Shown: positions 11,974 through 16,052 of the stretch, in pieces
How positions within the stretch are numbered: position 1 is the stretch's first letter
How the letters are laid out: each line of letters starts with the position of its first letter
NCBI GenBank assembly: GCA_040357565.1
Contig: JBDODJ010000008.1
Strand: one strand, 5' to 3'
DNA: 64,000 nt
Origin: Cercozoa sp. M6MM
Lineage: Eukaryota; Protista; Endomyxa: Ascetosporea
Notes under the pieces: generated by a model
Told to the model about the DNA's origin: nothing
Databases searched by the model: none
The model's input: the letters and a program-made list of their open reading frames with translations, nothing else
Program-made: the position numbers and the translations under genes

Positions 11974-14900
11974 ATGTTGTCGCGACGCGTTCTGGCTGTG
12001 TCGCGTGCCGTCACGGCACGTGGACGCTGCATCACGACGATTGATCAGGTATTGACGTCGATTAATGCAGGTCTGGGTGAGCAAAAAAGAAACAACGCTG
12101 TCCGAGACCAATCCCAATAACGTAGCTACCGGAGGAGTGGAAGAAGTCTGCTGAAAAGGAGCTTCGCGGTTTGTCTGACTCTCACACGGAAATTCTGGAG
12201 CATATTTCCCCGTGTAGGCAAGCCATTGGATGCGATTTTGTGGAAGACGGCCGAGGGCATCGACGTGCCGCCTGTGTTCTTCAAGGGCGAGGGTGCACTC
12301 AATGTTGCGGCGAGTGACTATAGCTTACGTGTGTTGATGTGCAGAGGGCGAAGAACTTCCCGGCAAGTACCCGTTCACGCGTGGTACTGCATGCTTGTTG
12401 TCCTGTTGTTCTCTTGTGTATTAGGGATGCTTGCAGGTCCCCACGCCACCATGTACACGAACCGTCCCTGGACCATTCGTCAGTACGCCGGTTAGCAAGC
12501 TTTATTGAAAGAAATGGGTCAAGCGCATCCTCGTTTGGTGAACAGGTTTCTCGACGGCCAAGGAGAGTAACGCTTTCTACCGCCGCAACCTCGCTGCCGG
12601 TCAGAAGGTGTCACTCCTAGTCCACCCGTTTGCTCGCTGTCTTATCTGAGCTGTGCTAAAGGGTTTGTCTGTGGCGTTTGACTTGGCGACACACCGCGGC
12701 TATGACAGTGACCACCCGCGTGTCAAGGTGTGCCTTACACTGAGCGTACTCCTAAGTGTACGTACCCCGAGTCGGTGTTGTAGGGTGATGTCGGTATGGC
12801 CGGTGTCGCCATCGACTCAATCGAGGACATGAAGGTCCTGTTCGACGGCATTCCGCTGGACAAGATGAGTGTGTCGATGACGATGAACGGTGCCGTCGTG
12901 CCGATCATGGCCATGTACATCGCCGCCGGCATTGAGCAGGGTACCTGACCTGTCTTCCGCTGGCTTGTGTGCTGTACGCTGGTGCGATAGGCTGCAAGAT
13001 CGAGGAGCTGGCAGGCACGGTGCAGAACGACATTCTTAAGGAGGTAGCCATCATGTTATCTACCGGCATAGATATCGCTATGTCTGTGTATGTGTAGTTT
13101 ATGGTGCGCAACACGTTCATCTACCCGCCCGAGCCGTCGATGCGCATTGTCACTGACGTCATGGAGTACACGAGGTACCTTGCACTGTACATGCACTTTT
13201 GAGGCCGATTGTGTTTCTGTGTACAGTCAGCACATGCCGAAGTTCAACAGCATCAGTATCAGTGGCTACCATATGCAAGAAGCCGGTGCTGATGGTGTGC
13301 TGGAGATGGCCTTCACTCTTGCTGACGGTCTCGAATACTGCAAGTACCTTTGTTTTTAAGGCGTTTGTCTCTTGATCGCGTTGACGGTTTGTGATAAAAA
13401 GGTGCGCACTGAACGCCGGCATGGAGATCGATCAGTTCGCGCCGCGTCTGTCGTAAACCTGTTCTTTTTTTCTCATTCGGCATAGTGTGCATGTTTGGCA
13501 TGACACAGTTTCTTCTGGGCCGTTGGCATGAACATGTACACGGAGGTATACGTCAGTCGCTCACGCAACTGTGTCTCTGATGCTTTCGTGTTCTGTAGAT
13601 TGCCAAGATGCGTGCCGCTCGTCGTCTGTACTATTTTGATCTTGCTTGAGTGTCTTTTTGTGTACCTTCTGTTCTCAGTTGGGCCAAGCTGATTCAGGAG
13701 CGCTTCCAGCCCAAGAACCCGAAGGTGCCTTTTCTGCGCTGCACTGTGTTGTTTTCTTAAAGCAAATTGGCGGATTGTTTTTTTTCCTGTGTGCAGTCTC
13801 TCATGTTGCGAACGCACTCGCAGACCAGTGGTACCAGTTGCATTACTCGGCCATATGTAGCTTGTTCGCCATATGTAGCTTGCTCATCGGATATGTACAG
13901 GCTGGTCTCTGACCGAGCAGGACCCGTACAACAACGTCATCCGCACCACCGTCGTAACAAAACTCAACACCTGACTGCCGCAACTCCGCTTTTTAATGAA
14001 CGAAAGCGTAGGAAGCCATGGCGGCCGCGATGGGTGGAACGCAGTCGCTGCATACCAACGCTCTTGATGAGGTATCTCACTTTGGGATTATGGAGTTGGC
14101 CTCCAGTGTTGTTTGTGCACAGGCCATTGGTCTGCCGACGGACTTCTCTGCGCGAATTGCGCGTAACACGCAGATCATCCTGCAGGTACTTTTGAGGATT
14201 ATAAAATACTACTGTGCTCATATTGGTATGTGACAGGAGGAGGCCCAGATCGGCAAGGTGGTCGACCCGTGGGCTGGCAGCTACATGATGGAGGTGTGCA
14301 CTGCCTTCTTTCGCTGCTGAAAGAGAGCAAGCAAGGTGTGCAGGAACTGACGAACGAGTTCGAGAAGCGTGCCCTCGAGATCATCAAGGAGGTCGACGAG
14401 CTGGGCGGCATGACTGCTGCCATCCAGAGTGGTAGACATGCCTACATGAGTCGCCATGTCTAGGTTTATCAAGGTCACTGCAGGAATGCCCAAGATGCGC
14501 ATCGAGGAGTCCGCGGCCCGTAAGCAGGCCAAGATCGACTCGGGTTCCGACGTCATCGTTGGTGTTAACAAGTACAAGGTGCCCACCGACCAGGAGGAGG
14601 AACTTGAGATCCTTCACATCGACAACACCACCGTTCGCGAGGAGCAGGTAGCTGTCCTTTCGCTCGTTTTTGTGTTTTGGTATTTGCCTTTGTATATTGA
14701 ACTCTTTGATAGATCAAGTCGCTCAAGAACCTGCGTGCCACACGCGACGAGGACAAGGTGCAGTCGCTGCTGAAGCAGCTCGAGGCCGCTGCCAAGTCGC
14801 GCGAGGTATCTTTTGTTCCGTCGGTGATTAAGTGCGTGTGCAAGTGTTTTTTCGCAGGACGGCAACGTGATCGAGATCGCTGTCGAGGCTGGTACATTTC

Positions 14901-16052
14901 CGCGCCATTCTTTAGTGTTTGATCATGTTTCATGGTGCAGCACTGGCGCGTGCCACGGTCGGTGAAATCTCGGACGCGATGGAGCGCGTCTACGGTCGTC
15001 ACCAGCCCTCCGTATTTTCCACCTTTCCCAGTGCAAGCAAACTGATCCGATCACTGTTGTTGTGCGCAGGTCCAGGTGGTGTCGGGTGCCTACAAGCAGG
15101 CTTACTCCAAACCAAAGGAGGTGCAGGAGGTGCTCGATCGCGCCGAACAGTTCGCGCAGAAGTATGGTCGCAGGTATGTTTAATTTTTCCTGTTGTGCGT
15201 GTGGCGCCGTGTGTGTGTGTGTGGCGCCGCGTGTGTGTGTGTGGCGTGTGTGTGTGCTGTGTGTTGTGTGTTGTGTGTTGTGCATTGGTCGTTGACACAG
15301 ACCGCGCGTGTTCATCGCCAAGATGGGTCAAGACGGACACGACCGCGGTGCCAAGGTCGTCGCCTCGGTACTACACAGTTTTCTTCTGTTGTTTCCTCTG
15401 CAGTCTCAGCCTGTTGTTTTCGACACAGGGCCTCTCGGACCTCGGCCTCGATGTTGATGTTGGTGCCTTGCTTGTTGTGATACACTTTCGTGTTTCTTGT
15501 GATGAAACCCGTTTCGGTAGGTCCGCTGTTCCAGACGCCTGCCGAGGCTGCCCAGATGGCTGTCGACTCGGATGCCCATGTGTAATATATCGCGATTCCT
15601 TTTGGTTTGGTGCATCCTAATTTCTTTTTTGTGTGTGGTAGCGTGGGCGTGTCATCGCTTGCTGCCGGTCACCGCACGCTCGTCCCGATGCTTGTCGATG
15701 AGGTATAGTGTATTTTATGGGAAATGGGGAGCCTGCTAATTTCTTGGGTGTGGCAGTTGCGAAAGAAGGGCATGGACACGATCGTGACTGTCGGTGGCGT
15801 CATTCCGCGCGATGACTACCCCATGCTGGTATCTACGATTAGCTTATGCCTTGGATAGATGCGAGTACATCACAGTACGAGGCCGGTGCGCGCGCCATCT
15901 TTGGTCCTGGCACGCCGATCACGCAGTGCGCGATGGAGACAATCGATGCCATTGAGGCGGTACCTTTAGCCCTTGAGTGAGTACACCCAATGGCCCTTTG
16001 AGCTCACTCCCATGCGGGTGTTGTGCAGATGCTTGAGCAGCAAGCCGAATAA
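11974..16052 (+). CDS. MMUT: Mitochondrial methylmalonyl-CoA mutase (adenosylcobalamin-dependent), 33 exons
   Basis: Full in-frame splice reconstruction: Arg/Ser-rich transit peptide, [59 protein letters not shown], cobalamin motif [26 protein letters not shown]. Confidence 0.98.

Follow-up and report, generated by a model that had tools for sequence, protein, structure and literature searches.

Pairing of the U6 ACAGA box with intron positions +4 to +6 is regarded as a core step in the hand-over of the 5′ splice site. In intron-rich species, donor positions +3 to +6 carry 1-4 bits of information, and donors are described as "largely restricted to GT(A)" in Paramecium tetraurelia, the Bigelowiella natans nucleomorph and dicyemids (PMC2483917); given such donors, the premise of an initial annotation of the DNA studied here, that +5G is near-universal, was overstated. 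Donors without +5G are accompanied by canonical U1 and an ACAGAGA box both in Stentor (PMC9505925) and in the B. natans nucleomorph (PMC6461891), and no snRNA compensation is described for 240 mostly yeast genomes in the account given by PMC10581693. Introns of Stentor and Blepharisma are 15-16 nt long (PMC9505925, PMC13685798).

We investigated the donors of Cercozoa sp. M6MM, a marine amoeba and cultured protist now named Lemnamoeba sinaloensis (Rhizaria, Apofilosa; PMC13746701), in a window of 64 kb, the whole stretch of DNA that was analysed. The chromosome-level genome and the transcriptome of this organism have been published, with an annotation trained on the transcriptome; the genome has 13 introns per gene with a mean length of 82 nt, 99.5% of them GT/AG, abundant AC:GT repeats and no Introner signal (PMC13746701). 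Multiplying 8,704 genes by 13, both figures being from Table 1 of that paper, gives ~110,000 introns genome-wide. M6MM introns are called canonical, with nothing further added where they are mentioned, in PMC11069148. No extended donor analysis was found in the searchable text of PMC13746701 or of four of its supplements (text as distinct from figures and images), and the text of the supplements gave no match to splice, snRNA, METTL16 or logo. A literature search, with most subscription papers outside its scope, returned no account of the donor pattern in M6MM or in other rhizarian nuclear genomes. The donor profile is real and apparently undescribed for M6MM.

The window carries a methylmalonyl-CoA mutase (MUT) gene at 11974-16052 (+), which encodes 734 aa in 33 exons separated by 32 GT-AG introns of 47-127 nt; one exon is 100% identical to P0002, which NCBI lists for Cercozoa sp. 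M6MM as a mitochondrial methylmalonyl-CoA mutase. The introns were placed by aligning P0002 (734 aa) exactly, with splicing, to 11974-16052, and this reproduced to the digit the donor counts of the initial annotation: +4 is C in 13, T in 12, A in 4 and G in 3, +5 is G in 5/32, and GTRAG occurs in 0/32. The boundaries had been described as fixed by protein conservation. When an HMM built on 78 MUT homologues, self excluded, was applied to 493 frame-preserving alternative donors, it preferred the annotated donor in 29/32 introns, and in introns 2, 22 and 23 the margin was <3 bits; the description holds for these 29 and does not hold for introns 1, 3 and 32. A gene finder that was given two other genes for training, and no donor model for +4 to +6, predicted 31 MUT introns, and 31/31 were exact. 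Because of the HMM preference and the exactness of this blind gene finder, the MUT intron boundaries appear sound at the sequence level. Intron 1 (12049-12125, +), one of the three whose boundary is not fixed by homology, gives an example: the exon ends in CAG and the intron runs from GTATTG to CGTAG, with a G/GTR donor and an RYAG acceptor.

Three further genes of the window match M6MM proteins. A cytochrome b5/fatty-acid desaturase gene (21742-23874, -) has 14 introns in isoform P0125, the donors of which show +3A in 14/14 and +5G in 1/14; a kinesin gene (51701-58679, -; Pfam Kinesin and KIF21A-like) has 53 introns, with +5G in 17/53; and a RING-finger gene (P0136; 44375-49636, +) has 22 introns. 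Intron density is extreme in MUT, with 32 introns in 734 codons and a mean exon of ~67 nt, as it is in the kinesin gene. The RING-finger protein (1195 aa) has two other M6MM proteins as its sole relatives among 1.84 billion representatives, and a search of metagenome contigs gave two distant desaturase loci (L001 and L002, 40-44% identity) and no kinesin relative. The 32 MUT introns and 89 from these three annotated proteins formed a protein-anchored set of 121. Adding 155 introns predicted in 14 gene models (gene score >25, intron posterior >0.9) gave 276 donors, all from one 64-kb window. Among the ab initio models, a predicted protein-kinase gene at 58988-63987 (+) contributed 38 high-posterior introns, a predicted gene at 5201-10045 (-) contributed 23, and another at 26957-31113 (+) contributed 21, with +4G in 9/21. 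Leave-one-out performance of the gene finder outside MUT was weak: 11/17 desaturase predictions were exact, and 7/8 kinesin predictions were exact for 53 true introns. The gene finder also split the P0136 gene into fragments, and its score of 98/100 on known genes is not independent. The anchored and predicted sets gave the same donor matrix, and the pattern recurs in other genes of the window, as the initial annotation had said.

Several further features of the window were recorded. Many of the introns in 5201-10045, 26957-31113 and 58988-63987 abound in TTACCC/TACCC and in runs of C (71 TACCC seen vs 21 expected). Two similar genes lie in inverted orientation at 996-2726 (+) and ~3290-4700 (-); their N-terminal peptides are near-identical and their tails are Q-rich. 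Assembly gaps, most of them intronic, fall in (GT)n or G/C runs (1180-1300, 35040-35140, 37610-37710, 42420-42520 and others). In putative intergenic DNA several palindromic tetramers are over-represented. GTAC reaches 19-26/kb in the intergenic stretches 11695-11943, 16083-16599 and 51364-51670, with none in other intergenic stretches; this could reflect mutation bias, a motif of promoters or terminators, or UTR introns missing from the annotation.

As the boundaries come from sequence alone and 155/276 introns are ab initio, the donors might be mis-annotated, or the introns might be U12-derived or introner-derived, in which case the logo would record origin, not recognition; by eye, GTACCT and GTATC do look like U12 donors. 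We consider this highly improbable. The MUT boundaries are supported by homology and by the blind gene finder, all 121 anchored introns are GT-AG with GC permitted in the alignment, and the genome-wide figure of 99.5% GT/AG and the missing Introner signal (PMC13746701) point the same way. U12-type introns, with an RTATCCTT donor and a TCCTTAAC branch site, were rejected: GTATCC begins 5/276 donors, and TCCTTAAC was found at the branch position in 0/252 introns. Introner elements, which would show as families of similar introns with terminal repeats and target-site duplications, were rejected as well within the window; similarity was seen in only 3 intron pairs, and no junction repeats were present. 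The 5′ and 3′ ends of 99 introns showed no covariation, and pairing of intron ends (GTAC...GTAG) was ruled out by its lack at +3 to +8.

Across the 276 donors, the exon side shows A at -2 in 38% and G at -1 in 72%. Position +3 is A in 82% and G in 14%, a purine in 264/276 (96%); +4 is C, T, A and G in 46, 25, 15 and 13%; +5 is C, T, G and A in 31, 26, 25 and 18%; and +6 is T in 41%. The commonest donor is GTAC (104/276). Positions +3 to +6 hold 1.45 bits (1.62 in the anchored set), near the bottom of the 1-4 bit range given in PMC2483917. Position +3 alone accounts for 1.14 bits and +4 to +6 carry only ~0.3 bit, and none of the 64 words at +4 to +6 stands out (best z <3). The donor signal is shrunk to about G/GT(A/G), with +4A and +5G at chance level. 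GTRAG had been called absent. This stands for MUT (0/32) and not for the window, where GTRAG is rare: 5/121 anchored donors have it, two in the kinesin gene (53851 and 52183) and three in the P0136 gene (44937, 47347 and 48044), and 11/276 (4%) in all, vs 9.9 expected from independent marginals. With the human frequency of 53.6%, 0/32 would have a probability of 2e-11; with that of the window, 0.27. The GTRAG class is at chance level, rather than absent.

What remains of the donor signal is shared between exon and intron. Either -1G or +3A is present in 270/276 donors, +3A occurs in 63% of AG/ donors vs 90% of the others (p=4e-7), and exon-side and intron-side (U5/6) donor scores are anticorrelated (rho -0.25, p=2e-5). 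AG/GU is found in just 83/276 donors (30%), and most donors fall outside both human classes.

The pyrimidine preference at +4 proposed in the initial annotation equals context: 197 pyrimidines were seen, and modelling of intron interiors at order 2 predicts 198 (172 at order 0). After GTA, C is found in 46% of donors vs 42-43% at intergenic sites (254 introns; p=0.43 and 0.57). Against intron interiors, C/(C+T) at +4 is 0.65 vs 0.45 after GTA (p=6e-4) and 0.62 vs 0.35 after GTG (p=0.005), a modest C-over-U shift that is real on this comparison. U at +4 is depleted, with 69 seen vs 105 expected (104-130 over orders 0, 2 and 3, and 97 at order 1). U1 could have co-evolved to pair with +4C, with a 5′ end ACGUAC as in Mastigamoeba balamuthi, making G/GUAC the true consensus. 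GTAC being the commonest donor, +4C exceeding the intron-interior context and the Mastigamoeba precedent (bioRxiv 10.1101/2022.06.08.495308) are all consistent with such a U1, as is the drop of +4C with -2A (OR 0.53, p=0.017 uncorrected); from this drop and the +4C excess, position +4 may be read by the spliceosome. However, C after GTA is equally common in intergenic DNA, +4C shows no trade-off with -1G (OR 1.19, p=0.53) and is flat across exon-match classes, and Thecamonas and Mamiellales favour +4C with a standard U1 (bioRxiv 10.1101/2022.06.08.495308), all of which makes a U1 reading +4C unlikely.

The initial annotation had also linked +4 to METTL16, a link that does not fit the data, in that it would give +4U and +4U is depleted. 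Because only the modest C-over-U shift remains, the donor pattern is no METTL16-loss-type +4U switch. More broadly, if cofactors of the U6 helix (METTL16, SNRNP27K, LUC7/U1-C type) had been lost or altered, the advantage of +4A/+5G would be gone and GURAG would decay. The chance-level GURAG agrees with this, and mutants in such factors move usage to exon-side (U5) sites (PMC11732430). We judge it distinctly unlikely, given that the losses described in PMC10581693 produce +4U in intron-poor genomes, whereas in this intron-rich genome +4U is depleted. Under M6MM losses, the GO gain/loss table of PMC11069148 lists none of the splicing or snRNA terms looked up, which is weak evidence. Cofactor loss can be compatible with the explanation that we favour below.

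Overall, +5G is close to background, at 68/276 vs 47-55 expected. Its distribution among donors is uneven: G at +5 was found in 23/154 (15%) of G/GTA, 23/71 (32%) of H/GTA, 18/45 (40%) of G/GTB and 4/6 of H/GTB donors, all four of the last with +6T. Among +3A donors only, the contrast between G/GTA and H/GTA is significant (p=0.004), and non-donor GTA sites show no such contrast (114/474 vs 275/1297). In a logistic model, the odds ratio for +5G was 0.36 (p=0.001) for donors with -1G and 0.27 (p=0.0002) for those with +3A, part of the +3 effect being context, as G is commoner two bases past GTG. The seesaw has the same direction in the anchored set (9/69 vs 9/32, p=0.09, not significant alone) and in the predicted set (p=0.02), and phase-2 introns do not show it (8/34 vs 7/28). 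This indicates that +5G is kept as a backup in donors without -1G or +3A. Recruitment of G by weak donors is, we infer, the outcome that unchanged U1 and U6 would produce. Since +5G is higher in weak donors, canonical U1/U6 are therefore favoured over rewired ones. A rewired U6 ACAGA box, for example with G for the C or A facing +5/+4, would install a new donor code, and it would account for +4C and, weakly, +5C lying above single-base background; a changed box, ACUGAGA, is known in Cyanidioschyzon (PMC10158995). We find this very unlikely: +5C matches context (86 seen vs 73 and 97 expected at orders 2 and 3), no +4 to +6 word is outstanding, and weak donors recruit the canonical base, G. The proposal that altered U1/U6 read a new +4/+5 code is likewise not supported, given the ~0.3 bit at +4 to +6 and the rise of +5G in donors without -1G or +3A, which canonical pairing would predict.

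Specificity could also come from intron length and the 3′ end. The 252 introns measured have a minimum of 46 nt and a median of 57 nt (5th-95th percentile, 49-81 nt), and introns below ~30 nt, the tiny-intron trait, are absent. In a frame-blind, leave-one-gene-out placement simulation of the 121 anchored introns, short signals plus length placed 62/121, and adding composition gave 90/121 exact (74%) with 100 predicted. Addition of +4 to +7 left this at the same 90/121, while omission of length reduced it to 55/121 and accuracy from 0.74 to 0.45. Without position -4, the 62 fell to 50. The simulation fails on a quarter of introns. Length is needed for intron placement within this model. The suggestion that splicing relies on the exon side and intron length is thus borne out by -1G at 72%, by the anticorrelation of the exon side with +3A and by the loss of accuracy without length. 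The acceptor carries an RYAG signal (consensus YRYAG), which the initial annotation lacked: -3 is a pyrimidine in 265/276, and -4 is a purine in 106/121 anchored acceptors vs 68/156 decoy YAGs within introns and 65% across the window. Anchored acceptors are GCAG in 38, ACAG in 33, GTAG in 24 and ATAG in 7 of 121 introns, without a clear polypyrimidine tract; a literature search on a -4 purine signal at acceptors returned nothing specific. The branch region is weak, with A rising to 0.21-0.27 at -19 to -15 and TRAY in 69/252 introns vs 50 ± 6 in shuffled sequence. Among annotated isoforms, desaturase P0135 keeps introns 1 and 3 unspliced and has an extra last intron, and kinesin P0134 alters only the last acceptor; retained introns and a shifted acceptor, with the donor shifted in neither, fit intron definition (PMC2397502).

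Rfam gave no match in the 64-kb window at gathering thresholds and four weak repeat-driven matches at E<=1, with no U1, U5 or U6 among its results for the window; ARAGORN found nothing in the same window. A tRNA-like fragment at 41085-41165 (-), in which motifs resembling a D-arm and a T-arm can be seen by eye, has a fold z-score of 0.25 and no match by either program, and is possibly a tRNA pseudogene.

Taken together, we think it likely that a canonical U2-type spliceosome places these short introns by intron definition, with +5G pairing as a backup. Information on the donor is almost confined to -1G, GT and +3A. Exon-side pairing, presumably read by U5 loop 1 and U1, together with +3A would define the donor, and the RYAG acceptor and a narrow length of ~46-80 nt would complete the definition of the intron. 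The U1 5′ end and the U6 ACAGA box would be unchanged, and their pairing to +5G would persist as a backup. Selection on +4 to +6 would have been relaxed in a genome with ~13 introns per gene, and the NN//GURAG class would therefore have collapsed to chance level. The donor signal has shrunk likely because an ordinary spliceosome relies mainly on the length of these very short introns and on their exon-side and 3′ ends. It is rather unlikely that the helix between the U6 ACAGA box and the donor has become dispensable at 50-80 nt through a change of machinery (U1 reading +4C, or SNRNP27K/LUC7-type loss), with specificity moved to -1G/+3A and RYAG; if true, this would put the two-class U5/U6 model to a natural test. 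With ~110,000 ordinary short introns in which U6 pairing is nearly unconstrained yet kept as a backup, the genome is a large natural data set on the minimal donor sequence and on whether recognition on the U5 side can stand in for that on the U6 side, and the pattern matters for gene prediction in Rhizaria.

The profile is best read as the outcome of the U6-type GURAG class having collapsed in a genome dense in short introns, and is probably not new splicing chemistry. It resembles that of the known GT(A)-only lineages, now at an intron length of 50-80 nt: these too are intron-rich, with short introns, a donor signal ending at about +3 and a weak branch point, and where they have been examined (Stentor, nucleomorph) they have canonical U1 and the U6 ACAGAGA. 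Their introns are 15-25 nt long, whereas the Lemnamoeba median is 57 nt in a nuclear genome of 53% GC, and Lemnamoeba differs further in its strong -1G, RYAG acceptor, +4C-over-U shift and residual +5G seesaw. The exon/intron-side anticorrelation (rho -0.25) is shared with the AG//GUNNN (U5-type) class of animals and plants (PMC11732430; PMC10581693). In contrast to that two-class U5/U6 system, just 30% of Lemnamoeba donors are AG/GU, the intron side is carried by +3A and not by +5G, and the NN//GURAG class makes up 4%, compared with 53.6% in humans (PMC11732430). As in Mastigamoeba balamuthi (U1 ACGUAC), and in Thecamonas trahens and Mamiellales (standard U1), C is commonest at +4; Mastigamoeba GUGCGC and Mamiellales GYGCGY keep +5G, whereas in Lemnamoeba +5G is at background and +4C reaches only 46% (bioRxiv 10.1101/2022.06.08.495308). 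The +4A preference is gone as in Saccharomycotina after loss of METTL16/SNRNP27K, but those yeasts are intron-poor, favour +4U and are little changed at +5, while Lemnamoeba has depleted +4U and high intron density (PMC10581693). Dispensability of the U6 helix through a change of machinery, if true, would make Lemnamoeba the mirror image of the yeast route.
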